Positions 1 to 26,971 of a stretch of DNA of 64,000 bases are shown here, piece after piece. The notes under the pieces are model-generated. The model had not been told where the DNA came from, did not search any database, and worked only from the letters and a program-made list of their open reading frames with translations. Where the stretch lies: assembly GCA_963695545.1 (NCBI GenBank), contig OY968796.1, positions 3,392,001 through 3,456,000 on the forward strand, given 5' to 3'. Made by a program: the position numbers and the translations under genes. Source of the stretch: Terriglobia bacterium (GTDB lineage: Bacteria; Acidobacteriota; Terriglobia; Acidiferrales; UBA7541). Numbering within the stretch: the first letter of the stretch is position 1; each line of letters begins with the position of its first letter.

Positions 1-1382
1 TCGAAGCCGCCATCGAACGAAAGATTTTGCCAGTTCGGCAGCTTGTTGCGCTCGCCCCACCAAAACATGCGGTCGGAATAGGCGATGCCGCCGGCGCATT
101 CGCCGAGCTCGACGAGATTGAAAAGCGGATCGGCGAGCGTGCCGGCGAGCACATCGGAATCGGAAAAATCGACGAACCACGTGGTGGTGACCGTGTCGTT
201 GATTTGCATCCGCGGCGAGCCTTCATCGCCGGTGGTGTAATAAAACGACGCGCCGCCGGACGCGGTGAACATCAAAACGCGCGCCACGATGTTCACGAGA
301 TTCAGCGGCAGCGGAATTCCGGTGACTTGCGCGCGGCAATTTCCTATCGAGGTCCAGGAGATCGGCGGCGAGGGCTGCGTGATGTATCCCTGTCGCGTGA
401 GGAACGCGACGGCCACTTGATGCGCGCCCGCGGCGATCGAGCCGAGCGGATTTGCGGTGCCCGCGTAGCCGGATTCGTTGGCGCCGGCTTGCGCGAAAGT
501 GAATTGCGTGCCGCTGGTGATGGACGCCACGGCGAATGTGCCGTTCAAATCCGATGGCGCGCCGGCGGTGCCGCTGGCGCCGGCTTCGTCGGCGCCGATT
601 TGCACCCAGGTGAAAATCGTGTTCGTGGAATCGACGGTGGCCACGGTGTACGAGCCATTGAAATCGGTGGTGCCGCCGGTGACGCCGGCGATCAGAATTT
701 GCGCGCCGACGGCGATCATCAGCGCCGCGGCGGTGTTCGCCGTGACCACGTCGTCGGAGCGCTGAATCGTGGAAAGCGCGACGGGCGCGGCGACGGTGAC
801 ATTGGAAATTACAATTTGATCGCTGCTATCGAGATTGTGCGGCGTGGCGGTGTTCACGGTGACCACGTTCGAGGTGCGCACGATGCTCGAAATATTCGCG
901 ATCACATCCGCCACGGCCGCGGGCCCCGAGCCGGGACCGACTTGGCTGACGCGATCGAAATACGTGCCGTCATACTGGCGCGGCAGATCGAGGCCGAATT
1001 GGCCATCTCCGAACGCGAGATATTCGCGGCCGAACAATGTGGTGGACGCGGCGCGCGCGCCGGCCACGATGCCCGACGCAATTTCCGTGAGCACGCCGGG
1101 CGCGGAAGAAAATTCTCCCCAGAGCGTGCCGCTTGAATCGAGCGCGAGCAGCGTCTCCGCGAGATTTTGCTGAATGTACGTTTTGAGATAATTCACCGTG
1201 GGATTGCCGGCGATCGGCGTGTACACGGATTGCAGGCCGGGCCGCGTGCGGACGGCGCCGTTCAAGAACGCGACGTCCTGGCAATCCGGCGAGCAGCCGA
1301 ACGGGAGATCGGGCGCAGCCATGTCGGTGACCAGGCCGCCGAAAAGATCGAGAGGAACGTCGGTTGCGCCGGCGATGCTCAT
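1..1382 (-). CDS. Phage-like tail hub/stabilisation protein (P22 gp10-like), 3' end runs off the window
   Basis: Not in ORF track because it has no stop in the window. My translation from ATG 1382 (GAGGA RBS) reads MSIAGATDVPLDLFGGLVTDMAAPDLPFGCSPDCQDVAFLNGAVRTRPG..., open to base 1. An N-terminal FGGL..D...RTRPG pattern and its position after the adaptor fit podoviral tail proteins. Confidence 0.65.
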   Translation of the reverse strand, partial: MSIAGATDVPLDLFGGLVTDMAAPDLPFGCSPDCQDVAFLNGAVRTRPGLQSVYTPIAGNPTVNYLKTYIQQNLAETLLALDSSGTLWGEFSSAPGVLTEIASGIVAGARAASTTLFGREYLAFGDGQFGLDLPRQYDGTYFDRVSQVGPGSGPAAVADVIANISSIVRTSNVVTVNTATPHNLDSSDQIVISNVTVAAPVALSTIQRSDDVVTANTAAALMIAVGAQILIAGVTGGTTDFNGSYTVATVDSTNTIFTWVQIGADEAGASGTAGAPSDLNGTFAVASITSGTQFTFAQAGANESGYAGTANPLGSIAAGAHQVAVAFLTRQGYITQPSPPISWTSIGNCRAQVTGIPLPLNLVNIVARVLMFTASGGASFYYTTGDEGSPRMQINDTVTTTWFVDFSDSDVLAGTLADPLFNLVELGECAGGIAYSDRMFWWGERNKLPNWQNLSFDGGF

Positions 1383-1412
1383 CGTGTTGGGTTCCTCTGC
1401 GCGATGCGCGGA

Positions 1413-1751
1413 TTACAGCAATTTGCGGAACGCGGCCTCGAACTGGATGTTGGCGTCGCCGGAGATGCGCGTGGGATACGTGCCGGCGGCGAGCTCGGTG
1501 GCGGACGCGGTGCTGATTTTCACTTTGCCGTTGTTGAGCGCGGTGCCGGGAATCCACGCGTAGAGATCGGCCGAGGTGCCGCCGGCCCAGAGCTGCGTGG
1601 GCGGGAGGCTCGCGCCGATTTGCGACGCGACGGTGGTGAAATCGAGCGTGTCGCCGCCGGTGGAATAGCTGCCCGACGGCGTGAGCTTGCCGAAAACGTA
1701 GATGTTGCCCGTGCCGGTGTCCACATCGGTGATGGTGATTGCGAGTGCCAT
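1413..1751 (-). CDS. Small virion structural protein (head decoration/cement-like)
   Basis: ATG 1751 with GAGGAG RBS; 112 aa, beta-rich (MALAITITDVDTG...SGSYSTGGDTLDF); located in the structural operon. Confidence 0.55.
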   Translation of the reverse strand: MALAITITDVDTGTGNIYVFGKLTPSGSYSTGGDTLDFTTVASQIGASLPPTQLWAGGTSADLYAWIPGTALNNGKVKISTASATELAAGTYPTRISGDANIQFEAAFRKLL

Positions 1752-1816
1752 GAGATCTCCTCTCGTTTCTCGTTGCGAAGATTGCGATGGTTGCGGCGAT
1801 GTGGTTTTTGAATTAC

Positions 1817-1893
1817 GTAGCGGAGGCCTACAGGCCTCCAGCCTTTGCCGCACAAAATCAAAAGCCAGATGGAGGCCTAAAGGCCTCCGCTAC
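1817..1893. repeat. REP family A inverted pair (GTAGCGGAGGCC-N4-GGCCTCC)
   Basis: GTAG-headed hairpin at 1817-1840 and inverted copy at 1870-1893. Confidence 0.85.
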
Positions 1894-1934
1894 AAAACCA
1901 TTTCGGTTCGCGCGTCCTTCTTCAATCGCGCGCG

Positions 1935-2660
1935 CTAAACAATCGGGCCGTAGGTGGCGCGCCAGGAATAGGGGCGGCGGCGGCGGACCGATTGCTGCTC
2001 GCGCAGGACGGCGCGGGAGACCAAATCTTCGAGCGCGTCGGAGCCGGCGTCGTCCCAGCGCTCGGAAAGCGGTGAACCGCGCGCGGCGGAAGCGAGCGCG
2101 GCGGTGAAATACGCGATGGCTTCTTGCGCGTTGCGAATCAGCACAGGGCTGGTGGAATCCGTGAGATCGGGCAGCGAGGCCTGATAGCGCAGGCGAATCT
2201 GCGTGTCTTGCGTGGCGCCGAGGAACCAGAGGCCGTCGGTGCGCCATTCCCAGAAGCCGAGCGCGGCTCCCTGCTCTTGCGAGGGCAGGCCGCCGTGATC
2301 GGTGAGGTCGATCATCTCGGCGAAATCGTCAGTGGAAAGATTCGGGCGCTCCCACAATTTTTACGGCACGAGCAAATTGAACGGCAATTGATTCGGCGGC
2401 GCGGTGGCGTCGGTGATGGAAACCTGCAACGAGGGATCCACGGCGCTGACGGCCGGGACGACGAGCAGCACATCGTCGGTGATGAAGGAGGCCGAGCCGA
2501 TGTTCGCGAGCGCGCGCTGCACTTTGCGATATGCGGCGTTGGCGTAGGGCATCAGCACCGTGTCGGTGAAAAGATTGCCCGCGGCGTCGTTCAAGAGCGA
2601 ACGCACGAGGCTGGTGATGGTTCCCGCGGTGTTGTAAGCGCTGGTGGCGACGACCGGCAT
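1935..2660 (-). pseudogene. Head-tail adaptor-like protein interrupted by an in-frame TAA
   Basis: ORFs 2361-2660 and 1935-2357 share one frame: ...PFNLLVP*KLWERP... N-terminus (TITSLVRSLLNDAAGNLFTDTVLMPYANAAY) resembles phage adaptor/tail tubular proteins. Confidence 0.7.
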
Positions 2661-2746
2661 GATGTGCTCCTTCTATGCGCGCGTGGCGGAATCGATGGGT
2701 GTGCGGCGGAAATTCAAATGCCGAGCGAACGATCGAATTTGAATTT

Positions 2747-2818
2747 GTAGCGCCGGCCTTCAGGCCGGCATCGCGCTTACGGTGGAATTGAAAATGCCGG
2801 CCTAAAGGCCGGCGCTAC
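2747..2818. repeat. REP family A variant pair (GTAGCGCCGGCC-N4-GGCCGGC)
   Basis: Inverted pair whose stems show compensatory changes relative to the other copies. Confidence 0.8.
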
Positions 2819-2845
2819 ATAAAACAAAACCGCGTGTGCGCGCGA

Positions 2846-3025
2846 TCATTCCCCGCGCAATTTTCGGCCGATGTAGACGGCGGCGGCGCCGCCGACGAGG
2901 CATGCGGCGATGGCGTAGTGATGGATGCTCAGAACTCCTCCGGCGATGAAGGCGGCGAAGCCGGCGATTTCGACGATCTCGCCGATTTTTGCTAGTTCCG
3001 TGGTTGCGGGCGTGATTGCGGTCAT
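2846..3025 (-). CDS. Small two-TM membrane protein (59 aa)
   Basis: ATG 3025 after CAGGAG; two hydrophobic stretches and a basic tail. Confidence 0.55.
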   Translation of the reverse strand: MTAITPATTELAKIGEIVEIAGFAAFIAGGVLSIHHYAIAACLVGGAAAVYIGRKLRGE

Positions 3026-3089
3026 GTTGTTCTCCTGTGATGCGGATTCCGAAATAAAATGTGTCGTGGCGCGCGGCGCTCGGCGCGCG

Positions 3090-3368
3090 TTACACCTGCT
3101 GTTCGCGGTCGGGGCCGGGCATGTCCCAGATGACGGGCTCATCTTCTTCGGCGGCGGGCGTGGCGGGTTCAACGCGCGCTTTGCCGAAACCGAATTCGAT
3201 CAGTTTTTCCCACACGCGGGCTTTCACGCTCGAACCTTTCTTGCCGTCGCTCGAGAGCAATTCGCACGCCATGTCCACCGGGTTGTGGCGCTTGAAGACC
3301 GCGCGGGCGAGCTCGCGTTGTGTCCGCGGCGGGCGAGCGCGCGTGCGAGATTTTGTTTGCTTGGGCAT
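3090..3368 (-). CDS. Small basic helical protein, possibly terminase small subunit-like
   Basis: 92 aa with basic N-terminus, helical core and C-terminal PVIWDMPGPDRE strand; function is inference only. Confidence 0.4.
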   Translation of the reverse strand: MPKQTKSRTRARPPRTQRELARAVFKRHNPVDMACELLSSDGKKGSSVKARVWEKLIEFGFGKARVEPATPAAEEDEPVIWDMPGPDREQQV

Positions 3369-3457
3369 GTGCGTTGCGAGATCAAAGGCGTGACGCCCCT
3401 GCCGGGGCTTGCGCGAGAGACAAAACAACAATTGAGAAAAATATATTAATCGCGATC

Positions 3458-3507
3458 GTACCCAGGGCTTACGCCCTGGGCTAAAATGTGCCGCCCCTAC
3501 GGGGCTG
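3458..3507. repeat. REP family B (ACCCAGGGCTTACGCCCTGGGCT...CGCCCCTACGGGGCT)
   Basis: Double hairpin; related copies at ~9258-9308, 14257-14304, 17353-17457 and 34090-34137. Confidence 0.8.
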
Positions 3508-3573
3508 ATTTTTGAGTGCGCCGCGATTCCGGCCTGGAGCTGGCGACGCCGAGATCGCCGCGCAACAGCAAGG

Positions 3574-3597
3574 TGGAGGCCTGAAGGCCTCCGCTAC
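3574..3597 (-). repeat. REP family A single copy
   Basis: TGGAGGCCTGAAGGCCTCCGCTAC. Confidence 0.85.
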
Positions 3598-3634
3598 ATA
3601 AATCCGAAGCGATCGTGCATTGGTAGGGGCGCGG

Positions 3635-4387
3635 CTATCGATGCGGGCGCGCGGGGGCGGCGGGCGTTGCGGACGGCGCGACCGATGCTGCGGCCGCGGC
3701 CGGAGACGCCATCGGCGCGGCGGATCCGGCGGGCGAATCGCGCAGCAGGCCGAGCGATTGGGCTTTTTCGCGATCGAGGATTGCGCCGCAGGATTTGCAG
3801 ACGGCTACGCCGGGTTTCACGCGTTCGCCGCAGCCGGGACAATCGGAAGTTTCGTGGAGCTGATAATTCCATTCGCGCTCGAGGCCGAGTTCGCGCGCGG
3901 CGCGGCGCTGCAAATCGTCGAGGAAGAGATGCGAATGCGAGCGCGCCCATTCGCGATCGGCTTCGGCGACTTTGCGGCGATAGAACGCGTTCAAGCGGCG
4001 GCGCGCGTCGGCGATTTCTTCGGGCGTGGGCGCATCGCCGGCGCAGACGAACGCGCCGAGAAAAGAATCCTCGCCGGCGTCGCCATTGATTTCGCGGCAG
4101 AGATCGGCGGCGATGTCGCGCGCGGAAATGTTTACGTCGAGCGTGCGCTTATCGCCGAGATCGATCACGGCTTTGCGCGGCGTGACGCGCGTCAGCGAAC
4201 ACGGCGGCCACGCGGCGCTCGCATGGTTCGCGGCGTCGTGCGCAGTGTCGCCCGAAGTGGAGGCCTGAAGGCCTCCGCTACGAAGTTCAACGCCCTCGGA
4301 CGGCGGAATGAAAAACGCGCCGTAGTTGCGGTGCAAATTCCAGCTCTGCGCGGTGAGATTTGCGATCACGGCTGTTTCTTCGGACAT
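3635..4387 (-). CDS. Phage-associated protein with C-terminal zinc ribbon (CPGC...CKSC)
   Basis: ATG 4387 after AAGGAG; two CxxC motifs; contains an in-frame REP at 4258-4281. Confidence 0.7.
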   Translation of the reverse strand: MSEETAVIANLTAQSWNLHRNYGAFFIPPSEGVELRSGGLQASTSGDTAHDAANHASAAWPPCSLTRVTPRKAVIDLGDKRTLDVNISARDIAADLCREINGDAGEDSFLGAFVCAGDAPTPEEIADARRRLNAFYRRKVAEADREWARSHSHLFLDDLQRRAARELGLEREWNYQLHETSDCPGCGERVKPGVAVCKSCGAILDREKAQSLGLLRDSPAGSAAPMASPAAAAASVAPSATPAAPARPHR

Positions 4388-4480
4388 GCGGCGATTCTCC
4401 TTGATTCTGACAGTGCCATCTTGAACCATTGGTTAACGCGGATATTGTCGAGCGTCGCGCCCGGTGCTACATTTGCGGCA

Positions 4481-5059
4481 ATGCGATACGCCGCCGTTTC
4501 GGTCCTGATTCTTTGCGCGCTAGGCGCGCAAGCCGTGCCGCAGGCTTCATCGCCCGTTCAGCCCGCGAAGGCGCAGCGAAAAATCCCATGCAAGACGCCG
4601 GAGAACGCTTCCGAGTGCTACTGGACGCGCGGCAGACTCTCGTTCTACGCTGACAACAGTCCTTGCGAAATCTGGAAGATCGGCACACATCGGATGCTCG
4701 CGGTTTATAACGGGCCTTCGCATTTTCCGCCGCGGACGGACGCTGACAGGACTGACCCGGAGTTTCCAGCGAGTCTCGATAAGGTCTATGACGATTACGA
4801 GCGGCGCAACGGGGTTCAGGATTTTCCGCCGTCCGCGTTTGCAGATTTCGAGGTATGCCCTCTCGATCCGGAGCGGAAGGGTGAGATGCAGGCCGTGTGT
4901 ATCGAATCCGCAAAGAACATTTTCTTGAATACCGCCCACTGGCGCGCTCGATGCCGACTCACTGCTTCTTGTCGGGAAAGTATGTATTCACCCAGGCTGT
5001 CCGGGATGACACGCTCCTGGTCGGAAATGAATTTTGATAGGGGCCGGACTGCGTGCTGA
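4481..5059 (+). CDS. Secreted Cys-containing hypothetical protein (accessory insert)
   Basis: MRYAAVSVLILCALGAQA signal peptide; opposite strand to the operon; 3' end uncertain. Confidence 0.55.
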   Translation: MRYAAVSVLILCALGAQAVPQASSPVQPAKAQRKIPCKTPENASECYWTRGRLSFYADNSPCEIWKIGTHRMLAVYNGPSHFPPRTDADRTDPEFPASLDKVYDDYERRNGVQDFPPSAFADFEVCPLDPERKGEMQAVCIESAKNIFLNTAHWRARCRLTASCRESMYSPRLSGMTRSWSEMNFDRGRTAC

Positions 5060-5299
5060 TCTGGGCGCCTGAGGCTTGGCGACGCCGAGCGCCCGGCCCC
5101 CGAAGGACTCCGACGAGTTTTGCCCATCGTTCGGCATGAATCATCGCTCCCGAAGAAGCGGACGAGAAACGAACGTGAAACGGAAGCGTTCAGGCCTCCA
5201 CCGATTTCGCGTAACGGCAAGTGGGATGCCGATAACCTCCGCAATACGGGGCGATGGTGATAATCTGGCACGGGGTACCATCCGTCCGAGTGGAGCAGC

Positions 5300-5614
5300 T
5301 TGGTGCGCAAGGCTCTGCACGAACTGCGCAAGTATTTGTTGCCGGCAGGTTTCGCCCTCTCGCTGGCGTCAATCCCGCTTCTTATTTATTGGTTCTACCA
5401 GCACGCGTCCACCTCGCAAGGCGTTCCCATGTTCGATGTCCAAATGCCGGACTTAACGACGGCGCTGGGCTTCGGGCTTTCCATAGTTGGACTGGTGATT
5501 ACGATTGCGGCCACAGTGTTTTCCCGGCGTCACCGCTCGATGCACGCGATCGCGCTTCTTTGCTCGGGACTGTGCTTTTTAGTTTGGTTTCTTGTGGCGA
5601 TTCTCAACAGCTGA
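5300..5614 (+). CDS. Small three-TM membrane protein (accessory)
   Basis: Three hydrophobic segments; lower GC than flanks. Confidence 0.45.
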   Translation: MVRKALHELRKYLLPAGFALSLASIPLLIYWFYQHASTSQGVPMFDVQMPDLTTALGFGLSIVGLVITIAATVFSRRHRSMHAIALLCSGLCFLVWFLVAILNS

Positions 5615-6200
5615 CGCTCACAAACGGCGCGCCGTGGAATGCGCGGCCGGTGTCCGAGAGCAGGGCGTCGGCGAAGGAATCGTAATCGCGATCTTCGCGG
5701 GCGTCGCGGCGATCGAGCGCGGCGCGGCGCTCGCCGGCGCGCAAGCCGCGGCTCCATTCGATGGCGCGGGCGACGTGCGCGAGCGCCGCGGGCGTTAGCG
5801 GAATGAAATCTCCGCGCGGAGATTCGAGCGTCAGGCAATGCTCGTATTCGCCGCGCGAAGGATAGGGGCCGAGCGCGGGAATCGCGCGCGCGCCTTCGAT
5901 TTCGATCGTGTTGCGCTGCCAATCGCGCGGAGAGCCGTAAAATTCCGGCGGCGCCCAGCGCTCGATGTGCCAGCGATCGACGGCGGGATATTTCGGTTCG
6001 CGGCGCAGCTCGACGCATTCGCGAATCAGCGTGCCGGCGGCGTCGCGGTCCTCGAATCTGCCGCCGACCCACGCGAGGCGATTCCATCCCCACACCGCGC
6101 GGTAATTTGGTTCTCCGAAACGATTGATGCCGCCGGCGGCGCGCAACACGCGCGCGGCCCACGGCGGCGTTTCGTGCGTTTCGCGCGTGACGCGGATCAT
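5604..6200 (-). CDS. Phage-cluster hypothetical protein downstream of the capsid gene
   Basis: MIRVTRETHETPPW...GPYPSRGEYEH; host-like codon usage; lies in the operon. Confidence 0.7.
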   Translation of the reverse strand: MIRVTRETHETPPWAARVLRAAGGINRFGEPNYRAVWGWNRLAWVGGRFEDRDAAGTLIRECVELRREPKYPAVDRWHIERWAPPEFYGSPRDWQRNTIEIEGARAIPALGPYPSRGEYEHCLTLESPRGDFIPLTPAALAHVARAIEWSRGLRAGERRAALDRRDAREDRDYDSFADALLSDTGRAFHGAPFVSVSC

Positions 6201-6234
6201 GGGGTGGTGTTTTGGTTTGTCGTGTTTGAATAAT

Positions 6235-6305
6235 GTAGCGGAGGCCTTTAGACCTCCAGGGTTTTTCGCGCAAAAGAAAGATGGAGGCCTAAAGGCCTCC
6301 GCTGC
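6235..6305. repeat. REP family A inverted pair
   Basis: 6235-6258 and 6282-6305, each with one mismatch to consensus. Confidence 0.8.
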
Positions 6306-6345
6306 ATAGATCGGGCGCGATCGGGCGTTGCGACGATCGCCGTGC

Positions 6346-6383
6346 AGGAACCCCACACGCAAATGCGGCGTGTGGGGCACCCG
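6346..6383 (-). repeat. REP-like hairpin family D (GGTGCCCCAC...GTGGGGTT), possible capsid-gene terminator
   Basis: CCCCACACGC-N-GCGTGTGGGG hairpin; a related element sits at ~7790-7833 on the other side of the capsid gene. Confidence 0.5.
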
Positions 6384-6413
6384 GGAAAAATCCACCAGAA
6401 AACCAACGGCGCG

Positions 6414-7685: not shown

Positions 7686-7859
7686 GATTCACCTCGCCTC
7701 GTTTTTATTTTTGGATTGAAAGATACGCAGCCCCCGAGGCCGCGGTGGAAATGGAAAGTCGTGATTAGCTAAGTCGAACGGAAAATTAAAAACCCCGCCC
7801 GTGTCCGCCGCGGCGGGCACGAATGGGGCGCCGAGAAATCAAGAGCTACGAACGCGGTG

Positions 7860-8007
7860 CTATTTCGAGGAAGGCGGGGACTTCCAATTGGGATCCCATT
7901 CGGGATGAGGATTCGTAATGGAATCGCACAGCGCTGCAGGGCGATGGACGCTGCTGACGGCGACGATCTCGACCGGAGCCGCTCTCAGCTTGGCCAGCCT
8001 ATTTAGG
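7860..8007 (-). pseudogene. 3' remnant of a gene truncated by the IS3 element
   Basis: Open frame from the IS boundary (LNRLAKLRAAPVEIVAVSS...WKSPPSSK*) with no start codon. Confidence 0.4.
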
Positions 8008-8047
8008 TGACCAGCCCGAGTTTTTGTACCACGGTGAATGAGAGAGT

Positions 8048-8890: not shown

Positions 8891-8913
8891 CGCGCTACGT
8901 CGCCGCTCAGGGC

Positions 8914-9192
8914 TTAGAAGTTTCCCTCTGCCACATCCTTCAGAATTTGCTTCTCCAACGAAAGCTCCGCCACCAACCGTTTCAGCTTGGCGTTTTCCCG
9001 CTCCAACTCTTTGAGGCGTTTCGCTTGATCCAACTTCAGGCCGCCGTATTCCTTCCGCCAGCGGTAGTAGGTCTGCGCGGTGATCTCGGCTTCCTTGCAG
9101 GCTTGTGGGGTGCTCTTTCCGTTGGCGATTTCAACTTCAACTTGCCGCAGCAGCGTGACGATCTGCTCCGGCTTGTATCTCCTCATCGGCAT
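8914..9192 (-). CDS. IS3 transposase OrfA (HTH)
   Basis: TYYRWRKEYGG...LKELERENAKLKRLVAELSL. Confidence 0.92.
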   Translation of the reverse strand: MPMRRYKPEQIVTLLRQVEVEIANGKSTPQACKEAEITAQTYYRWRKEYGGLKLDQAKRLKELERENAKLKRLVAELSLEKQILKDVAEGNF

Positions 9193-9342
9193 ACCAGCTT
9201 CCCTCCAGAGTGAATTCTCTCTCACTCCCGCTGGTACAAAAAACCCCGGTCAGGTCACTACCCCGGGGTTTAACCCGGGGTTAAGCTGTTTCGCCCCTAT
9301 GGGGCTGGCCATCGAGTGACCCCGCAATTTTGGCCCGGACCC

Positions 9343-11720: not shown

Positions 11721-11732
11721 TTATTCTCCCCG

Positions 11733-12026: not shown

Positions 12027-12049
12027 CGTTTGTGTCGCGAATAGATTTT

Positions 12050-17274: not shown

Positions 17275-17352
17275 GCGGATCTCCCTCGTCGAGAATTTCG
17301 GGCGCGAGCGCGTCGGAGTGTTCGGGTGGCACGAGCGGCGCGAAAGAAAAGA

Positions 17353-17551: not shown

Positions 17552-17594
17552 ATAAGGCAAAAGACAATTCGCGATCGCGCCGCGCGCCTCGCGG

Positions 17595-20500: not shown

Positions 20501-20840
20501 GTAGCACGCGCGTGGTGATGCCGGGGCCGTAAATCTGAATCGTGTATTTTCCGGGCGCGGCGTAGAAAAAATAATTGCCCAGGCCGTCGGTGGAGACGGG
20601 ATTCGCAAGCGGCGTGGTGAGCGCGGAATTGGAATAGAGCGCGGCGAGCGGCGAGCACGGCGCGGTGGTGGTCGTCGCAGGCTCGGTGCAGATCGCAACG
20701 CTCGCGCCGGCCAGCGGCTGGCCGGTCGGGCCGAGCACGACGTCGTCGTGGCGCGAGCCTTGCGCGGCCGCCGTCGTCGCCATTGCCGCGCTCAACATCG
20801 CGCACAGCAGCACCAGTCCAATCAATTTCGGAAATCTCAA
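17595..20840 (-). CDS. Tailspike-like protein with N-terminal signal peptide
   Basis: MRFPKLIGLVLLCAMLSAAMATTAAA-QG. A tailspike particle-binding-like segment follows (LANPVSTDGLGNYFFYAAPGKYTIQIYG), then a beta-helix entry motif DDTAAINAA and an H-type-lectin-like end (TITFANAYSSTPVI). Confidence 0.75.
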   Translation of the reverse strand: MRFPKLIGLVLLCAMLSAAMATTAAAQGSRHDDVVLGPTGQPLAGASVAICTEPATTTTAPCSPLAALYSNSALTTPLANPVSTDGLGNYFFYAAPGKYTIQIYGPGITTRVLPDVILPSDPSSPTFTSVTTTSGISAFSLSLAGNLGVSGNETVAGTLTVDGNPITGGGGGGNLSANNAWTGNNSFKGPIPYWDVTAWSASGSSTTTTGTIAASSSSLTLASAQDFANGEGVMIPGAGPASSLAAPAGVAAVVQGTTGSTSHTYKVVAVDSLRGASAATSFTVTNAPATLTATDFIQGAITPVTGAAFYAIYKDGAAWGTFSAELSPPYNITSITRTGGSSVTASVNQFCTACNYAIVGSQITVSGTTNFNGTFTVTAVAPSPSFTLTWTSSGTNTTETAGAIAQPIKWVDRGVGAVAYWPLNVPTAPPSSATPQWLLATIASGGGTTSLTLGASATTAASGATIYHDDTAAINAAASACATTRGGGTMTGGVLYAPAANGFYNAYGTLDLPATTGTCDFRLIGALNISNTLTLGQGWSIHGLGGYDESQFGYGPVAAVLSADAGVLPVLFSGVSAGAGKLQDLFVGGYSANGSAIEIYSQSNESLQNIQAFGATTGYGPMLKVRDACCWTMLDHGKYQGNGIDDAVWFELANGSRTPSDVVFVNGTVFEYGGIKISGETSSLGPNSNTFDFTDVTAETLFTSLVDLDSQNFAINALNISGGVYDTSVANLPMVGIVGYLNPIQNVTIQNPSTPPSALAGWVGSTVLSPYGANPCIDAWNFLPGPINGAPFQGTVESCGFTTSLGNAGFAANRVTATDDNVSAGSIVGQQGGSLNVGLQRPQSCAATPATSGGSLADGTYTYIVTALNGLDVPTTSTPYESWWSQTATATISGGGGHGEVSVSCNASAGAASYKVYGRTGGVAGVNGYVAGASFPIVDTGASLTTGALPPPGEESGNASVVRFTAAGNHYVLEGNTGLGTASPSYQLDATAQIRAQSGFVNGGHMNQSAANSDFAGASACASGAKTITFANAYSSTPVILIFDETTHGGASLSAKSASAFAVACTGASDAFDYIVIGNPN

Positions 20841-20904
20841 TGTCTTCTTGCGAAAAGAAAATTCCGGTCAGAGAGGAACGCGAGCCGCGCAAAAGCGGCG
20901 TTGG

Positions 20905-21276
20905 CTACGGCAACATTTTCGCGGTGAATGTGGAACCGCCGGTGGCGCTCGAGACGTTGATGCGCAGGAATTTCGCGCGCACGCCGGTCACGGTGCGCGC
21001 TTCGCCGGCGGTATTCGTGCTGGTGTCGAGCGTCGCGTATTCGGTGGCCACGTCGGCCATCGCGCCTTGCAATTGAATGTTTACGGCCGAGGGCGCGGTG
21101 GCGAAAATAGTTTGCCAGCGCACGGTGCGGTCGTCGCTGGCGAAGCCCGAAGGATTCGTGAGCGCGAATTGCGCGCCGGCGCTCGCCGATGTCGGCAGCG
21201 TCTCGCCGTTGAAGCTGTAGCCCACGTCGCCTGGAAAAAGCGAATACGGCGGCAGCGCATTGTTGTAAGCCGGCAT
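20905..21276 (-). CDS. Small beta-sandwich virion-like protein, paralog B (first gene of the operon)
   Basis: MPAYNNALPPYSLFPGD...AKFLRINVSS; GGAGG RBS. Confidence 0.7.
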   Translation of the reverse strand: MPAYNNALPPYSLFPGDVGYSFNGETLPTSASAGAQFALTNPSGFASDDRTVRWQTIFATAPSAVNIQLQGAMADVATEYATLDTSTNTAGEARTVTGVRAKFLRINVSSATGGSTFTAKMLP

Positions 21277-21441
21277 CGGGACCTCCGTGTGCGATTTGTT
21301 GTGCTGCGCAATCCGGTTCGCAATCGCGCGTCGGCGCGTTCGAGCGCTGACGCGCATTTTTGCGCGCGCGTTCGCACTCGCGCGGTTCGCGATTCTGTCT
21401 GCTGCTTATGCTTCTTGCCCTGCGGCGGGAAAAATCAGTGC

Positions 21442-21471
21442 AAAATAAAAAACCCCGACAGTCTGCCGGGG
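21442..21471 (-). terminator. Intrinsic terminator/attenuator in the operon leader
   Basis: Minus strand CCCCGGCA-GAC-TGTCGGGG followed by TTTTTTATTTT. Confidence 0.75.
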
Positions 21472-21474
21472 CGC

Positions 21475-21504
21475 TTGACACTTTTCTACAGGAAGCAGTA
21501 TAGC
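21475..21504 (+). promoter_or_regulatory. Possible overlapping opposite-strand promoter
   Basis: TTGACA (21475-21480), 18 nt, TATAGC (21499-21504), facing the DUF885 gene. Confidence 0.4.
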
Positions 21505-21525
21505 GCAGGACGATTTTTTTGTCAA
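21497..21525 (-). promoter_or_regulatory. Sigma70-type promoter for the structural operon
   Basis: TTGACA (21525-21520), 17 nt, TATACT (21502-21497). Confidence 0.75.
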
Positions 21526-21698
21526 GGCCCTCGGCGATTTTTAATTTCCATTCTTTGGGAGTGCGATATATCCTCCGCCGCAGTGGGGCGCGAAAAAGAG
21601 ATTCTTGGCGACGCGATGCAGAGCGCGCGCGCAGCGTGGCGAAGAACCGCGTAGAAGAAATGGGGGCGGCGATGCGAACGAGCGGAACTGTGGCGGCG

Positions 21699-23552
21699 AT
21701 GCGGAGATTGGTGCCGCGGCGCTGGAGAACTTCGCTGCGCTCGAGCGCGCTGACGCGGATCGCGCTAACGCCGCTCGTAGCGTTCACTTCGCTTGCGGCG
21801 CTCGCGTTGTGCGCGATTCCGACGGCGAGCGCGCCGCCAGCTACTCCGACGACCACCGAGCGGCTGCAAACGCTGGCGCAATCGATCACGTTCGATTGGG
21901 CGGCGACGCATCCGCTCGTCGCGACGGCGCTTGGCTTGAGCGACGAAGATGGGCAGCTCGACACGCCGTCGGCCGCGGAGAACGCGCGCGATCTGGCGAC
22001 GATTCAAGGTTGGGAGAGCGATCTCGACGCGATTCCGCTCGACGCCGCCTCGATGCGCGATGTGGACGACGCGAAGCTGCTGCGCGCGCAGCTTGTGAAC
22101 TACGAGCGGCAATACACGATTTACAAAACGTATGAGAAGGACCCGTCCGGGCCGGCGGTGGCGATTGTCGGCGCGATCTACACGCAATTTCTGCATTTGC
22201 CGATCGCCGGCACCGACGGCGCGAGCGAGGCCGACGTCGACGCGGCGTGGAAGAAAATTATTTCGCGCGTGGCCGCGGCGCCCGCGTACATCACGGCGGG
22301 CAACGCGCTGGTGACGCATCCGGGACATCTTTATGGCGTGACCGGCTCGGAGGAGCTGGCCGGCGCGCCGGATCTTTTTAATGGTCCGCTGACCGACGCG
22401 GCGAAGGCGCAGCTCTCCGCCGATCGATTCGCGGCGTTCGTGCGCGCGCGCGACGCCACGCTGGCGGTGATCGACGAGACCAAGAAAAATATCGACGCGA
22501 ACGCGGCGTCGTGGCCCGAAAATTACGCCATGGGCCGCGCCGCTTACGACGCGATGCTGCGTGATGAATTGCTGCTGCCATTTAACTCGAGCGAAATCGA
22601 AAGCATGGGGCGCGACGAGCTCGCGCACGGAGCCGCCGTGCAATTCTGGACGGAAGCGCTGGCCGCCGAGCGCGGCACGCCGATTGGCGCCGCGAGCGGC
22701 GGAGGTCTTGCGCCCGGAGGGCCCGCGCTGATCGATTACTATCGCGCGCGCATCGCGCAACTGCGCGATTTCGTCGTCGCGCATCATGTGGTGGACGTGC
22801 CGGCGTGGCTCGGCGAAATCAACGTGATCGAGACGCCGAAGTTTTTGCAACCGGTGTCGCCGGGCGCGTCGATGAATCCGCCACTGCTTTTCAGCAAAAG
22901 CTCCACCGGATTTTATTTCATCACGCCGCCGGTCTCGCTGGCGGACGCGGCGAAGAATCTCGATCCCAACGAGGATTTCGACAGCGATCGCATTCTGCAG
23001 ACCGCCGCGCACGAAGCCATGCCCGGACATTTTCTACAGCTTTCGATCGCGCGGCGCAATCCGGATTTCGTGCGCAAGATTCAGAGCAGCGGCGAGTTCA
23101 TGGAGGGCTGGGCGTATTACGGCGAAGAAATGTTCGTGCAGCTGGGATTGTACGGCGATCATCTCGATGGCCGCTACGACGCGGCGCAGTGGGAGCGCGT
23201 GCGCGGCGCGCGCGCCATCGTCGATCCCGAACTTGCCAGCGGCGATTGGAGCTTCGAGCGCGCCGTGGAATTTTTCGCGCACGAAACCGGCTTCACGCCC
23301 GAGCAGGCCAAAGCCGCCGTCTCCGCAATCGCGCTCGGACCAGGCTACGTGATTTCCTACACCGCCGGCCGCGAGCAGATCGAAACGCTGCTCAGCGATT
23401 ATCGAGCGAAAGTCGGCGCCGCCGCGTCGCTCGAAGATTTCCACGATCGCCTGCTCTGCTACGGCTCGACCCCGCTCTCGATCGTAGGCCCTGAGCTGCT
23501 AGCCGATCTCGCCAAGCCGCTCGACGAGGTCCGCGCTAACGCCGGATATTGA
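21699..23552 (+). CDS. DUF885-family secreted metallopeptidase-like protein
   Basis: HEAMPGHFLQ and EGWAYYGE motifs; signal peptide; start uncertain. Confidence 0.85.
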   Translation: MRRLVPRRWRTSLRSSALTRIALTPLVAFTSLAALALCAIPTASAPPATPTTTERLQTLAQSITFDWAATHPLVATALGLSDEDGQLDTPSAAENARDLATIQGWESDLDAIPLDAASMRDVDDAKLLRAQLVNYERQYTIYKTYEKDPSGPAVAIVGAIYTQFLHLPIAGTDGASEADVDAAWKKIISRVAAAPAYITAGNALVTHPGHLYGVTGSEELAGAPDLFNGPLTDAAKAQLSADRFAAFVRARDATLAVIDETKKNIDANAASWPENYAMGRAAYDAMLRDELLLPFNSSEIESMGRDELAHGAAVQFWTEALAAERGTPIGAASGGGLAPGGPALIDYYRARIAQLRDFVVAHHVVDVPAWLGEINVIETPKFLQPVSPGASMNPPLLFSKSSTGFYFITPPVSLADAAKNLDPNEDFDSDRILQTAAHEAMPGHFLQLSIARRNPDFVRKIQSSGEFMEGWAYYGEEMFVQLGLYGDHLDGRYDAAQWERVRGARAIVDPELASGDWSFERAVEFFAHETGFTPEQAKAAVSAIALGPGYVISYTAGREQIETLLSDYRAKVGAAASLEDFHDRLLCYGSTPLSIVGPELLADLAKPLDEVRANAGY

Positions 23553-23756: not shown

Positions 23757-24797
23757 CTAATTCAGGTGCAGAGCGCCGTATTCTATGCGGTCAGCGCAGA
23801 GCTTGCGAAGCGAAAGAATGGACGAAGGGTCTCTTGAGAACCCCCCGCCTGCGCATGCGAGAAGGAGTCCTTGGCCCGCATGTAACTGATAGACTAAGGT
23901 CTGGGCATCTTTGAATCTAGCGTTCCACTCCGAGTTTAGTCGATCCCCAAATTGTTCAGAAGCCTTTCGATCCGCATCTTGGACTGCGGGAGTCCATCCT
24001 GCGGGTGAGGCCGCGGTCGGCTTTGGCACATCCTGCGAAACCGAAGCAATCCAATCGTCGATTTCTTTTGCCATTTCTAGCCCCCGTCGCTTCAGATCTT
24101 GTGTTTGGGCAGGGGTCAGAGCAGGGGAAAATGGGGGGCTTGACGAAGGGGGACTTGAAGCCTGCGCAGCATTAGCTTGCTGCTGGCGCGAAATGGCTTC
24201 CGAATCAAGATGCCCCTGAACTCCGAGTGCCCTGATACCCACGTCAACCGTCGCCTCAATTTCTTCGCGCGTAAAATCAATTTCCTTTCGCTCTGCGGAA
24301 AATTCTTGTTCCTGCTGATTGAATAAATCGGATTCCTTTTGCAAGAGGGCCTCGAAACCTTTTTGCTCTTGGTCCTGTGTTGCTTTATTTGCAGCGATCG
24401 TCGCCCTGAATTGTTTGTTGTTCGTCGTAATCTCCGCGTTTGTGCTGTCAATTGTGGCCTGTACACCGGCGACGATCTTATTAAATTGGCACAGACTCGT
24501 TTCATACCTAGATTCTGCGACGTTAGCAGCGGCCTGAGCATCGGCATCAGCTTTAGAATGCTCCCTGTCGGATGCTGTCTTGCCAACTAAACCCATGGCC
24601 ACAATAACGACAATGTAGATTGCCTTTTGCCATGGCCTCATGTCCGCCAACATCATCAGAGCCACGAACACGCCGAATCCGAGCAATAGATAATCGGAGT
24701 TCGGCCGGAAGTAAAGATAAACGCATAACAAAACGCCAAGAACTTGAAGCGGGGTATGAAACCAGAGATTCGTTGGGTTTGGATTTTCCTCGGACAC
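23757..24797 (-). CDS. Membrane-anchored coiled-coil protein (lower GC), paralog of 31632-32514
   Basis: About three N-terminal TMs, coiled coil, Pro/Ser linker, C-terminal IDDWIA...LNSEW...LAC.GG domain; probable GTG start. Confidence 0.65.
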   Translation of the reverse strand: MSEENPNPTNLWFHTPLQVLGVLLCVYLYFRPNSDYLLLGFGVFVALMMLADMRPWQKAIYIVVIVAMGLVGKTASDREHSKADADAQAAANVAESRYETSLCQFNKIVAGVQATIDSTNAEITTNNKQFRATIAANKATQDQEQKGFEALLQKESDLFNQQEQEFSAERKEIDFTREEIEATVDVGIRALGVQGHLDSEAISRQQQANAAQASSPPSSSPPFSPALTPAQTQDLKRRGLEMAKEIDDWIASVSQDVPKPTAASPAGWTPAVQDADRKASEQFGDRLNSEWNARFKDAQTLVYQLHAGQGLLLACAGGGFSRDPSSILSLRKLCADRIEYGALHLN

Positions 24798-24855
24798 GCC
24801 CCCTCCTCCACGCATGACTTAAGTGGAAAAGAGTACCGCCAACGCATACCTTGTG

Positions 24856-25245
24856 TCATCGGGACGACCCTGCCAAGAAATATCTCCCCGGCGGATACAC
24901 GCCGCGGCGCACGAGTTCGCGGCCGACGCTGCGGCGAATCTGGATCGCCCAGTCGGCCCAAGTGTCAGGAGAGATGCCGAGCTCGCGGCGCGCGCGCTCG
25001 TATTCGGCGCCGCCGAGATAGAACATGCGGAACATGATCATGCGGCTGGCCTGACGCCGATCGAGCGCGGCCTCGCCGGCCAGCGCGAAATCGGCGACGT
25101 AATCGCCCAAGCGCGCGCGGCGATCCGGCCGCCAGCGATATTCCGACGAGCGCTCGGCGTGCATGATCGGAATTTTTTCGGCCAGCACATCGCGCGCGGC
25201 GCGGTAGACCTCGTGGCAAACATCAAAGGCCGTTTCTGCTTTCAT
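24856..25245 (-). CDS. Late-gene activator/antiterminator-like protein (C-terminal sigma4-like HTH)
   Basis: MFRMFYLGGAEYERARRELGISPDTW pattern as in RinA/ArpU/Q-type regulators; GGAGG RBS; last early gene before the late operon. Confidence 0.55.
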   Translation of the reverse strand: MKAETAFDVCHEVYRAARDVLAEKIPIMHAERSSEYRWRPDRRARLGDYVADFALAGEAALDRRQASRMIMFRMFYLGGAEYERARRELGISPDTWADWAIQIRRSVGRELVRRGVYPPGRYFLAGSSR

Positions 25246-25346
25246 CGCGTGCCTCCACCGGCCTTTATCAGGATGGCCGCGACTGTCGTTCTGAGCTCGC
25301 CGCGCAGCGCCGCGCGACCCACACTAAGATTTGCTCACCATATTTA

Positions 25347-26396
25347 TCAGCGCCCGTTCGCAGCGCCCTTCGCCCGCGTCGGAGCCGCGTCGCGCGCGCC
25401 GTCGCCAGATTTCTTCGTCGGCGCATCGCCTGGCGCGCGCAGCGGCGGCAATTCCGGGCCGCGGCCGACGTTCAAATCGCGCGCGAGCTGCAGCGCCTTC
25501 GCGTCCTGCCGAGATTGCCACCACGCCGGCGGCGCGGGCGATGATCGTCCTTGATTCGCGGCCGAAGATCCGCCGACGAACGGCCGCGCCGTCGCTCGAT
25601 TCCCTGCCGCCGGCGACGTGCGGCTTGCCCAGGGATCGAGCGATCGCGCCGCCTGCGCAAATGCGCGCTCGGCGGTCCCGCGCACATCGCCGGTGAATGA
25701 ATCTCCCTGCGCGGGTTCGATGAAGTGTGCTTTGGCAGTTCGTTCTGCAGTTCTTTCCAGAGAGGGTTGAGGCAGTGGCAGTCGCCTTTGCGGATTTTTC
25801 TCCCGCCCCAAATCCAAATTCTGATTCCGATACAAATCCGAATCCTGTGGTTGAGCCGGCTCAATCCCCGCCTTGAGTTCGCTCAAGCCCGAGCTTGAGT
25901 GTCTGCAAGATCCCTGCGCGGTTTCCTGCCCGGCATTTTCTTCACGAAGTTGCACCGCGCGGTCCACCGATGATTGCGAAATTTGCGCCGCCTGCTGTTT
26001 CGCGCCGCGCGAAAATCGCGCCACGTACTCCGCCAGCTCTTTGCGCGGCACCGGCGGCGCCAATTTTTCGAGGCGCACCCGCCACGACGGCGCCGGCAAG
26101 CGTCCCGGCACATCGCTGCCGGTCCAATGACCGTAGCGCTTGCCACTCGATTCCCAACGGAACAACAATCCGCGCGCGCCAAATTCATCGAAGACCTGCT
26201 CGAGCCGCTCGATCGTGAAGTTGCGCCGAATCGCGGCCACGCGTCCCCAAATCACGCGCAGATTCGTGAGCTCGAAACTTCCCGACGCGTCGGCCAATCC
26301 GTAGAGCCACGCGTATTCCGCCTGCGCCCACTCCGCGCACGCCGCAAGTTTGTCGGATGACCACATCGCGTCGGCATCAATCACGCGCTTTGGCAC
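25347..26396 (-). CDS. Phage replication initiator/replisome-organiser-like protein
   Basis: N-terminus MPKRVIDADAMWSSDKL...YAWLYGLADASG...GLLFRW fits the wHTH initiator type; low-complexity C-terminal half. Confidence 0.55.
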   Translation of the reverse strand: MPKRVIDADAMWSSDKLAACAEWAQAEYAWLYGLADASGSFELTNLRVIWGRVAAIRRNFTIERLEQVFDEFGARGLLFRWESSGKRYGHWTGSDVPGRLPAPSWRVRLEKLAPPVPRKELAEYVARFSRGAKQQAAQISQSSVDRAVQLREENAGQETAQGSCRHSSSGLSELKAGIEPAQPQDSDLYRNQNLDLGREKNPQRRLPLPQPSLERTAERTAKAHFIEPAQGDSFTGDVRGTAERAFAQAARSLDPWASRTSPAAGNRATARPFVGGSSAANQGRSSPAPPAWWQSRQDAKALQLARDLNVGRGPELPPLRAPGDAPTKKSGDGARDAAPTRAKGAANGR

Positions 26397-26635
26397 AACG
26401 CACCTCCCTGTTCACAATCGTTCACTTGTTTTTCCCGCGTGTTCAGATCGTGCACGTTCGGTGACATGTTCATGCGCGGTCCGACGCGATCGATTCGTGC
26501 ACATTCGATGACACGTTACATCGCGCGCGTAACGCGATCGCGCGCGCCGAGCATCGATCGCCGCGCCGCAAAAGTCCGCGCGCCCGAAATGGAACTCGCG
26601 TCGCAGCGCGATCACCGCCGATTTTTTGCCGCGCC

Positions 26636-26971
26636 TCACGCGCCCGACGCGATCCGGTATTCCCATTTTCCCGGTGGGCAGAGTTTTGTCCTCGCCGCGG
26701 TCTCTTCGCTGTCGCGGCGCCGCTTCGACACGCGGAATCCGCCGAACATCGGCTTGCGCAGATGCCGCAGTTGCGCCGAGATCGAGGCCTCGCCGTAGCC
26801 CGTGATTCGCGAGAGCTCTGTCAACGTCAACCAGGCGCCGCACTCCGCGGCTGACTGCATGACGTCGCGCACGAATTCCAGCTGCGTGCGCGTGCTCTCC
26901 CGATCGTAAAGCCGCCGCCAACTGGGATAACCGGCTATGCGTTGAATAACTTGCAGGCTGATGTGTTGCAT
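26636..26971 (-). CDS. Winged-HTH DNA-binding protein
   Basis: WLTLTELSRITGYGEASISAQLRHLRKPMFGG...WEYRI. Confidence 0.7.
   Translation of the reverse strand: MQHISLQVIQRIAGYPSWRRLYDRESTRTQLEFVRDVMQSAAECGAWLTLTELSRITGYGEASISAQLRHLRKPMFGGFRVSKRRRDSEETAARTKLCPPGKWEYRIASGA

Follow-up and report, generated by a model that had tools for sequence, protein, structure and literature searches.

Head, tail and lysis genes of a short-tailed phage kept as a host-inherited locus in an Acidiferrales family, possibly a gene transfer agent

Introduction

The window analysed here, a stretch of 64,000 nucleotides from an Acidiferrales genome, contains a minus-strand operon of phage head and tail genes and raises the question whether these belong to an ordinary prophage or to a particle system that the host lineage has made its own. 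Gene transfer agents (GTAs) are defined by caudoviricete-derived proteins, full endogenisation, often in several loci, and mostly vertical inheritance; they package mostly random host DNA in a head too small for their own genes and deliver it to other cells (PMC9662315). The GTA lineages known so far are few, and a podovirus-like example was reported for the first time only lately (PMC12946183). A particle locus under selection throughout a family of soil Acidobacteriota would be a further, independent case of domestication, from a different phylum.

Results

The initial annotation had proposed that the operon encodes TerL, portal, capsid, adaptor and tail hub of podovirus type, and this gene set was confirmed by profile matches and predicted folds (Table 1), both of which point to caudoviricete-derived proteins. 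The cluster comprises head, tail, DNA-packaging and lysis genes, extends about 7.6 kb to the left of window base 1, and spans 21–47 kb across 29 loci. In TerL, the Walker A (GK[TS]), Walker B (DE) and nuclease (DWG) motifs are found at all 30 loci having the gene, with divergent motifs in G044, G125 and G025; identity to phage records is 31–34% among the matches listed. No profile matched the portal. Its model, from an intact relative, resembles the podovirus portals of Pan3, DEV, SU10 and N4 (E 1e-12), and the hub model resembles the podovirus nozzles of SU10, A4, T7 (gp12) and P22 (gp10; E 5e-15). Portal, adaptor and nozzle make up the virion module of short-tailed phages, and no tail tube or tape measure was matched among the scanned element genes. 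The capsid gene is present as a single copy in this genome and has no match among 50,697 phage records. A relative of the operon's small first gene showed a weak head–tail joining match (E 0.02), and the candidate terminase small subunit matched no family.

Table 1. Features of the locus (window positions, or contig positions where headed G000:C1)
Feature	Position	Strand	Basis or occurrence
Tail nozzle or hub, 971 aa	1-1382 in window; G000:C1:3390467-3393382 in full	-	predicted fold
Small conserved virion-like protein	1413-1754	-	26/31 loci
Head-tail adaptor	1935-2660	-	PF24175 SU10_adaptor in two relatives, one above cut-off
Small membrane protein	2846-3172	-	homologue precedes TerL in most relatives
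Candidate terminase small subunit	3090-3371	-	position: homologues just before TerL block in G054, G070, G105
Conserved zinc-ribbon protein	3635-4429	-	31/31 loci; weak Zn_ribbon matches
Unknown-function gene after capsid	5604-6233	-	31/31 loci; also in phage-like relatives
Major capsid protein, intact	6414-7685	-	phrog_14242 1e-6; NCBIfam capsid_maj_Podo 1e-8, under family cut-off
IS3-family element at lost scaffold gene's place	8007-9257	-	9 copies in genome
Podovirus-type portal	9343-11720	-	predicted fold of intact relative; C-terminal part absent here
Small conserved gene lying between TerL and portal	11733-12026	-	28/31 loci
Terminase large subunit (TerL)	12171-13748	-	PHROG terminase 5e-41; Pfam Terminase_6N/6C
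Putative holin-like membrane protein	13755-14153	-	22/31 loci; no family match
Putative spike or fibre 2	14702-16780	-	open frame, internal repeat, start uncertain
Paralogue of small first gene	16882-17274	-	30% identity
Putative spike or fibre 1	17595-20840	-	conserved N-terminal 150-300 aa, rest variable
Small conserved virion-like protein, first gene of operon	20905-21276	-	29/31 loci
Intrinsic terminator, ~25 nt after promoter	21443-21472	-	sequence
Near-consensus sigma-70 promoter of structural operon, 11/12	21497-21525	-	sequence
DUF885 gene	21519-23552	+	PF05960 2e-63
Low-GC cargo ORF, outside conserved system	23757-24815	-	GC3 0.52; not in 12 other loci compared
Putative late-operon regulator, 129 aa, proposed Q-like antiterminator	24856-25245	-	conservation
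Replication-initiator-like gene	25347-26396	-	phrog_1408 E 3e-4
HTH-like early gene	26636-27082	-	12/31 loci; weak HTH_36 match in 1/5 relatives, E 0.004
Small conserved gene, candidate regulator, divergent from early genes	27399-27758	+	family F32, equivalent place in relatives
Weakly GNAT/Bbp19-like gene, outside window	G000:C1 3389448-3389936	-	30/31 loci; weak matches
Conserved 173-aa gene, outside window	G000:C1 3388688-3389209	-	21/31 loci
Q/A/N/G-rich 184-aa gene, proposed small ejection (pilot) protein	G000:C1 3387925-3388479	-	29/31 loci
Holin-like 81-aa gene, outside window	G000:C1 3387514-3387759	-	25/31 loci
SLT endolysin, outside window	G000:C1 3386666-3387109	-	PF01464 2e-13, phrog_669 5e-8; 24/31 loci
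Spanin-like last gene, outside window	G000:C1 3384434-3385225	-	25/31 loci

For the earlier labels holin, spike, HTH and sigma4/Q the window's own proteins gave no family match in Pfam, PHROGs or NCBIfam, and they are used here as putative names, as are pilot, holin (81 aa) and spanin, whose proteins likewise matched no family. Putative spike 1 shows only a weak carboxypeptidase-regulatory-like domain, and spike 2 has no Pfam match. In a relative's element there is a different large gene with a beta-helix match. The element does have an endolysin, the SLT protein encoded to the left of the window's edge; its motif EQE[ST] is present at 24 of 24 loci.

The distance from the 184-aa gene to the SLT gene is 340–1052 bp in 21 of 24 measured loci (7 of 31 were not measurable), and no conserved large gene family occupies this gap among the loci. 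In the same position the phage-like G374 has genes of 409 aa and more than 624 aa. Two distant G374 proteins used as queries found no large ejection genes elsewhere in G000, a weak search given how fast such genes evolve. With large ejection genes absent at the locus, it is doubtful that DNA could be delivered through an envelope of two membranes.

The capsid was found in 139 of 200 host-family genomes (at least 90% complete), mostly once and clumped by genus, and in 4 of 244 genomes from other families of the class. The family belongs to the Acidiferrales, which correspond to subdivision 2. At 25 of 31 loci dsbA or nadE follows the element; nuoI, ypdA or a parB-like gene precedes it at 19 of 31 and in this genome, and the rearranged G125 lacks any recognisable flank. 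No integrase is near the element, the nearest tyrosine recombinase lying about 55 kb past the last gene and resolvases more than 200 kb away. The element is dispensable, since 61 of the 200 genomes, including 30 of 49 of one genus, have no capsid match. Three of four capsid-less sites examined retain remnants in place, that is, deletion scars. In the closed genome G123, which has neither head nor tail, regulator genes persist together with the 184-aa gene and the lysis cassette, and the 184-aa gene is retained in 12 of 35 capsid-less genomes. The constant site, the lack of a recombinase, the deletion scars and the regulator displaced in some genomes all point to endogenisation.

Comparison of the element tree with that of rpoB gave 18 of 28 splits in common (shuffles: mean 0.24, maximum 3) and a patristic rho of 0.84. 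With 20 taxa, the element shared 13 of 17 splits with rpoB, and nadE shared 14 of 17. These trees, made with FastTree only, indicate mostly vertical co-diversification with the host, 2 of 14 strong rpoB splits being in conflict with the element tree. In the capsid tree alone a phage-like clade sits at an unresolved basal node and G025 elsewhere, so that a single origin is not evident from it. Median dN/dS ranges from 0.08 to 0.30 among element genes (capsid 0.09, TerL 0.15, portal 0.14, adaptor 0.11, nozzle 0.19, SLT 0.14), compared with 0.04 for rpoB and 0.09 for nadE at comparable dS. Frame-break flags per 1000 codons number 0.22 in the element and 0.16 in host genes. A vertically inherited, domesticated short-tailed system, as first proposed, is thus upheld by the single locus, the congruent trees, dN/dS far below 1 and the lack of an integrase beyond the window edge. 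Patchy spread, variable sites and host-discordant trees were not what the distribution and tree data showed.

The host-like composition and the enrichment in REP elements seen by the initial annotation were borne out: GC is 0.625 in the element, 0.601 in the flanks and 0.606 in the genome (element above flanks at 27 of 29 loci), and REP-like repeats of two types have 13 of 53 and 10 of 38 of their genome copies within 35.5 kb. The DUF885 gene does lie between regulator and operon; it is cargo rather than part of the system, because it occurs at only 1 of 33 loci.

This genome's copy is damaged, again as first noted. The scaffold gene, of which a homologue is present at 30 of 31 loci, is missing beside the IS3 element, which has no target duplication, and the adaptor is split by an in-frame stop (2361–2363), over which another run's contig (1900–2681) shows no difference. 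This copy is probably dead. The portal contains a frame shift near 9690. An assembly error is possible at this place, the other run's contig over 9622–10160 having one gap.

Among the early genes, the HTH-like one has no Pfam or PHROG match in this copy. The initiator-like gene, a relative of which matches O-like and DnaD-like families, is found at 7 of 31 loci and one more, solely in genera g1, g11, g12 and g18. Family F32 has a median dN/dS of 0.08 (6 pairs), and a relative of its gene gave no Pfam or NCBIfam match. The 129-aa regulator occurs in 149 of 200 family genomes, mostly as a single copy, with a median dN/dS of 0.18 and no match in Pfam, PHROGs, NCBIfam or PDB; in 7 genomes, two of them closed, it shares a contig with the capsid and lies 118–853 kb from it. 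A promoter motif related to that of the structural operon, defined after inspection of these same loci, is found 160–400 bp before the first structural gene at 12 of 29 loci and was not found at the other 17; a hairpin with U-run accompanies it at 7 of the 12. The promoter–terminator pair suggests control of the operon by antitermination. Of the features of lambda Q-type control, a late promoter with a close terminator is seen, and the regulator has no family match.

Discussion

We conclude with high confidence that the locus consists of domesticated, host-inherited particle genes of a short-tailed phage, maintained under selection by most species of this family of uncultured soil Acidobacteria, and is not an ordinary prophage. 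Genomics shows an old podovirus-type prophage that, judging from the sequences, became fixed with a nuoI-like gene on one side and dsbA–nadE on the other and was then kept as a particle-making operon. Its fixation probably dates back to the common ancestor of most, if not all, members of the family, and the integrase, most early genes and the large ejection genes were lost. Members of the family probably build their own virus-like particle, which is possibly a gene transfer agent; that the operon works as one, and hence transfers genes, is the likeliest of the readings, with chances that we see as about even.

In such a scheme the constitutive promoter would be silenced by the adjoining terminator until the regulator, made in few cells, permits the polymerase to read through, even at a distance. 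Portal, scaffold and capsid, all of them found among the loci, would form the head, into which the intact terminase is expected to load chromosomal DNA, the presumed cargo because no excisable genome exists. Adaptor, nozzle and variable spikes would complete the short tail, and holin-like, SLT and spanin-like proteins would lyse the cell. As the weakest step, a single small pilot protein might accompany the DNA into the envelope of a neighbouring cell, where the DNA would cross the inner membrane through host ComEC, the route by which recipients of RcGTA take up DNA. The host carries comEC, dprA and a comM-like gene; comEC and dprA lend weak support, because they were also matched in 10–11 of 14 control genomes.

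The domesticated particle might instead be kept for another host job without delivering DNA into cells, such as controlled lysis that sheds DNA and vesicles, nuclease-protected DNA in the biofilm matrix, spike-borne glycan breakdown, or decoys and receptor blockers directed at phages. This is somewhat unlikely in our estimate. The absence of large ejection genes speaks for it, as do the variable spikes, the regulator being more widespread than the capsid, and the retention of the 184-aa gene in capsid-less genomes, in G123 with regulator and lysis cassette. These remnants fit stepwise decay equally well, 23 of the 35 capsid-less genomes being without the 184-aa gene, and purifying selection acts on portal, adaptor and nozzle and on the ATPase and nuclease motifs of TerL, which lysis alone would not require.

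Selection could also come from the phage side, with no host benefit, if this were a defective prophage sustained by related phages as helper-dependent element or recombining reservoir. A phage-like sister group has equal gene order and 58% capsid identity (G374, L349, L350), gene exchange is suggested by G044, whose TerL is divergent although the element occupies the conserved site, and one clade retains the initiator-like gene. We consider this improbable, since the element tree is congruent at the level of host genes, and the element is split by hundreds of kb, has no integrase and is lost via internal deletion. An ordinary temperate phage, active or recently grounded, with a preferred nadE-side site is very improbable and largely refuted. 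A lambda-like early–late layout with lysis genes would suit it, and the capsid, at 64–95% identity, is found on at least 75 IMG/VR contigs, but these contigs are pieces of 4.8–47.7 kb and the phage records hold no such capsid. Further points against it are that the element co-diverges with rpoB, is mostly single-copy, has no recombinase, and shows host-like GC and REP-filled spacers. Neither an integrase nor an excisable unit, as expected of an active temperate prophage, was seen.

If the gene transfer reading is true, an abundant uncultured soil family would have a built-in gene exchange route, and much of what soil catalogues list as "viral" contigs would be fragments of the element; the capsid may inflate soil phage counts, because of the IMG/VR contigs that carry it. 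The missing ejection genes raise the question how, or whether, particle DNA crosses two membranes. Culture-free handles are offered by the fixed site, by the candidate master regulator with its promoter, and by proteins that can serve as markers in soil proteomes and virome reads.

Comparison with known systems

The uncultured podovirus-like phages that carry this capsid family (G374, L349, L350 and G425; 1611 representatives) share with the locus the order TerL, portal, scaffold, capsid, two conserved genes, adaptor, nozzle and pilot-like gene. G374 differs by many small phage-type genes and by the large ones that follow its pilot-like gene; in G425 such large genes are likewise missing, and a lysozyme replaces SLT. 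These relatives are sporadic in their families. Host labels of related records are mostly Acidobacteriota, Acidiferrales or Terriglobia. Solved fold relatives are SU10, N4, Pan3, P22 and T7.

RcGTA is siphovirus-like. The present locus differs from its type (Rhodogtaviriformidae) by podovirus portal, adaptor and nozzle folds, its own lysis cassette, and an Acidobacteriota rather than alphaproteobacterial host. Like the RcGTA-type elements of Rhodobacter and Caulobacter, it is endogenised, vertical and without integrase (PMC9662315). CcGTA is described as controlled via antitermination by GafZ (PMC11150451), a likeness that is here only proposed; no homology of the Acidiferrales regulator to GafA, GafY or GafZ emerged. 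BaGTA of Bartonella, described as possibly short-tailed, is near a phage-derived origin (PMC9662315), to which the initiator-like gene of one clade may be compared; that gene is absent from most Acidiferrales loci, and neither a helicase nor any further gene for replication could be recognised in the element. Common phage regions in Acidobacteria are reported as prophage clusters 140 and 153, from subdivisions 1, 3, 4, 6, 8 and 23, and are read there as prophages (PMC5900883).

As far as we found, no comparable Acidobacteriota particle locus has been described in print, and a podovirus-derived GTA in Acidobacteriota would be the first that we could find for that phylum in the literature checked. 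That it is an independently domesticated one, working without large ejection proteins through the recipient's uptake machinery and switched by a new antiterminator family, is a tentative reading to which we give clearly less than even weight. The precedent is FpGTA of Faecalibacterium prausnitzii, in its authors' words the first podovirus-like GTA (PMC12946183). It too is described as chromosomal, with podovirus-like head, packaging and short-tail genes, holin and endolysin, in loci that may be distant. FpGTA is reported genus-wide, in a Gram-positive host, as two operons of 10.5 and 5.5 kb, with particles and 9-kb packaged DNA observed, whereas the Acidiferrales system, known from genes alone, is family-wide in Acidobacteriota and occupies one 21–47 kb region with cargo and a spanin-like gene.

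Gene content and identification

The source genome (G000) is a single contig of 4.16 Mb (GC 0.606), on which the window occupies C1 positions 3392001-3456000. The early part of the minus-strand run contains an HTH-like gene, an initiator-like gene and a 129-aa gene that is a putative regulator of the late operon, followed by cargo, namely a low-GC ORF and a plus-strand DUF885 gene. The latter was rejected as a component of the system; it is cargo, present in 1 of 33 loci. The structural part comprises, in this order, small virion-like genes, two long spike-like genes, a holin-like gene, TerL, portal, an IS3 element, capsid, two conserved genes of unknown function, a candidate TerS, adaptor and nozzle. 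TerL and capsid were identified by profile matches and the adaptor by a match to PF24175. The portal gave no profile match and the nozzle a generic virion-protein match only, and both were therefore folded. A portal model from a relative (pLDDT 73.5) matched the portals of Pan3, DEV, SU10 and N4 (E ~1e-12), and the nozzle model (pLDDT 71.6) matched the SU10, A4 and T7 tails and P22 gp10 (best E 5e-15). Among the sequences of solved structures, the capsid, nozzle and adaptor profiles found no match and the portal profile retrieved zinc fingers only; a search of the ESM Atlas with the zinc-ribbon protein gave nothing useful.

Several other features were seen in the window and in related loci (see table). 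Six of the 31 loci carry, after the first structural gene and ahead of TerL, a member of a family of 400-850 aa genes; the family is absent from the source locus and has no Pfam or NCBIfam match. No shared iteron-like array was seen with the initiator-like genes of the 7 loci examined; that of locus L216 (genome G065) contains ten 54-bp tandem repeats.

Coordinates of features in the window, the source genome and related loci
Feature	Sequence	Position	Remark
REP-dense stretch	window	1-17552	extends 3.5 kb to the left
Adaptor stop	window	2361-2363	
Stretch bridged by contigs	window	6419-8123	
IS3	window	8007-9257	
Promoter	window	21525-21497	11/12 consensus matches
Low-GC orphan ORF (cargo)	window	23757-24815	
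129-aa gene	window	24856-25245 (minus)	
Direct repeats, 114 and 78 bp	window	27937-28329	between aspA and early genes; strong AT skew; within long A/T/K-rich minus-strand open frame
Low-GC orphan ORFs	window	31632-33247	
ORF	window	near 32161-32514	41% identity to C-terminal part of cargo ORF
Nearest tyrosine recombinase	source genome (G000)	3329468	
400-850 aa gene	L017	14805-16511	five more loci
Y1 (RAYT-like) transposase gene	L020 (G016)	11759-12316	within the element
Three cargo genes, one DUF6941	L001	11307-12480	between endolysin and spanin-like gene; resemble a small toxin-antitoxin-type insert

Left boundary and state of the source copy

Left of the window the element continues with four conserved small genes, including a Q/A/N/G-rich 184-aa gene for a proposed pilot protein, and with genes for an SLT endolysin (2e-13) and a spanin-like protein, and ends ~7.6 kb from window base 1. 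Beyond the spanin-like gene lie LysR, a TonB-dependent receptor and a toxin-antitoxin-like pair. The initial annotation had seen no endolysin, which holds for the window and not for the element itself. The absence of an integrase that it reported extends to the left flank, where the closest tyrosine recombinase lies ~55 kb past the element and resolvases are >200 kb off. Its description of this copy as damaged was also borne out: the locus carries an IS3 without target duplication, lacks the portal end and the scaffold gene found in 30 other loci, and has a stop in the adaptor. The IS3, with nine nearly identical copies in the genome, is recently active; one copy is situated 23 kb left of the window. 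Contigs from the runs of one study, which may be the source study, cover the adaptor stop without difference and bridge the region at the left edge of IS3. One contig spanning the portal frameshift has a gap whose place is not shown, so that this shift may be an assembly error.

The element has a ~30-fold higher density of REP-like repeats than the genome. As this enrichment is strong in the source genome and uneven in its relatives, the repeats were not counted among the components of the system.

One site, with losses in place

For comparison, 31 loci with long flanks were picked to span 18 genera, a non-random subset of the positives. Their gene order is conserved, with shuffles that follow genera and fall within 1413-21357 of the window. 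In genus g1 (G000, G001 and in part G002) the block of spike and holin-like genes and that of TerS-like and membrane genes are exchanged relative to most other genera, and in genus g11 the capsid is relocated behind adaptor and spike. The last gene is followed by dsbA or nadE in 25 of the 31 loci. Of the other six, two lack downstream sequence and four (G001, G125, G178, G196) have 22-28 kb without either gene; in G196 the next neighbours of the usual flank are visible. Upstream, nuoI-like, ypdA-like or parB-like genes occur in 19/31 loci and, just past the slice, in the source genome.

Loss of the element is by deletion in place. In three genomes without capsid the flanks lie 3.4-7.5 kb apart: G067 has a clean site, G021 retains a nozzle scrap, and the closed G123 (locus L330) keeps three early genes, the 184-aa gene and the lysis cassette, with head and tail genes all gone. 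The G123 remnant may serve on its own as a regulated module for lysis. Two early genes remain in G058, and in G022, the fifth capsid-less genome queried, neither flank was found. The 184-aa gene is retained in 12 of 35 capsid-less genomes. Nozzle matches were obtained in 23 of the 35, most spanning only profile positions 145-290; these positions are common to unrelated long proteins and such matches were therefore set aside. What is left is three genomes with a near-full nozzle and three with N-terminal scraps. In G092, G050, G100, G115, G153, G174 and G216 the 129-aa gene and the capsid share a contig but are 118-853 kb apart, which argues that the element is not a unit needing excision.

Spread

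Searched with the capsid, the species collection yielded 264 related stretches. Of the 80 best, most bear Acidobacteriota, Terriglobia or Candidatus Acidiferrales in their titles, with a few named otherwise; the host was assigned to this group through these relatives. Within the host family the capsid was matched, mostly singly, in 139 of 200 genomes (≥90% complete), or in 134/195 without the five unpublished ones (G013, G041, G051, G132, G164). Counts by genus were 17/17, 41/49, 7/7, 17/19, 10/12, 19/49 and 0/3, among others. Across the class, protein and profile searches found it in 38/56 family genomes versus 4/244 others, and in family f3 of the same order in 0/15 and 0/8. The 129-aa gene was matched in 149/200 family genomes, a tally which, like the class-wide and f3 ones, includes some unpublished genomes; no other claim depends on these. 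The capsid had no match in INPHARED phage records. In RNA runs X17 and X18, short contigs of relatives cover capsid, portal and TerL; as contigs do not reveal transcription and may stem from carried-over DNA, they were not counted. Small-share runs were likewise not taken as evidence of habitat.

Descent and selection

A vertically inherited, domesticated short-tailed GTA-like system had been proposed in place of an ordinary prophage, with conserved synteny at one locus, congruence with the host tree and dN/dS well below 1 as its expected marks. The shared dsbA/nadE flank agrees with the first of these. For the second, a seven-gene element tree and an RpoB tree (C-terminal 769 aa), both built with FastTree, had 18 of 28 splits in common (shuffles: mean 0.24, maximum 3; rho 0.84); of 14 strong RpoB splits, 11 recur in the element tree and 2 conflict. 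For the 20 taxa with nadE, the element tree shared 13/17 splits with RpoB and the nadE tree 14/17. Median dN/dS (Nei-Gojobori, at most 12 close pairs, with saturated ones removed) was 0.08-0.30 in 23 element genes versus 0.04-0.11 in six host genes, as anticipated. Terminase and SLT motifs are conserved, those of TerL being divergent in G044, G125 and G025. We conclude with high confidence that this podovirus-type particle locus is domesticated and inherited vertically.

In the capsid tree (118 sequences), those of the family and a phage-like clade meet in one unresolved basal node (support 0.19-0.34); G025, placed elsewhere, was used solely as root. A single origin of the family's elements is likely because the site is shared, and the capsid tree does not show it. 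Some gene replacement within elements is also likely.

Control of the operon

A hairpin with U-run follows 25 nt past the promoter, directly before the first structural gene. Of 29 loci, 12 have the promoter motif, drawn post hoc from these same loci, 160-400 bp ahead of the first structural gene, and 7 of the 12 also have the hairpin and U-run; in the other 17 the motif was not found. The whole source genome contains it 7 times. The layout is reminiscent of lambda pR'-tR'. The 129-aa gene, without family match in profile searches, is a natural candidate for the regulator or antiterminator. According to PMC11150451, control of CcGTA is by antitermination.

DNA delivery and relation to known systems

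In the phage-like relative G374 the 184-aa gene homologue is followed by genes for 409 and >624 aa, whose place and size suggest ejection proteins; neither had a family match. In the family loci the distance from the 184-aa gene to SLT could be measured in 24 cases and was 340-1052 bp in 21 of them, with no conserved large gene in this interval; a weak test, with the two G374 proteins as queries against the source genome, found nothing. The host has comEC, dprA and a comM-like gene, as do most controls. Either DNA would enter by host machinery, or ejection genes are located elsewhere, or the particle delivers no DNA. We regard a domesticated particle of the last kind as rather unlikely, and give function as a gene transfer agent an even chance.

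No description of the locus was found in the literature covered, which takes in few subscription journals and the main texts only; lists of GTA-like or cryptic elements in supplements might contain it. PMC5900883 and PMC12142844 discuss acidobacterial prophages of other groups. In G425, from another family of the class, loci L322-L323 have the same gene order, ~26% capsid identity and host-like flanks; large ejection-like genes are absent and a lysozyme replaces SLT. This cluster may represent a second domestication, or else a prophage in decay. Of the six features in the GTA definition of PMC9662315, three are found here and the other three would have to be read from particles. The nearest working model is FpGTA (PMC12946183).
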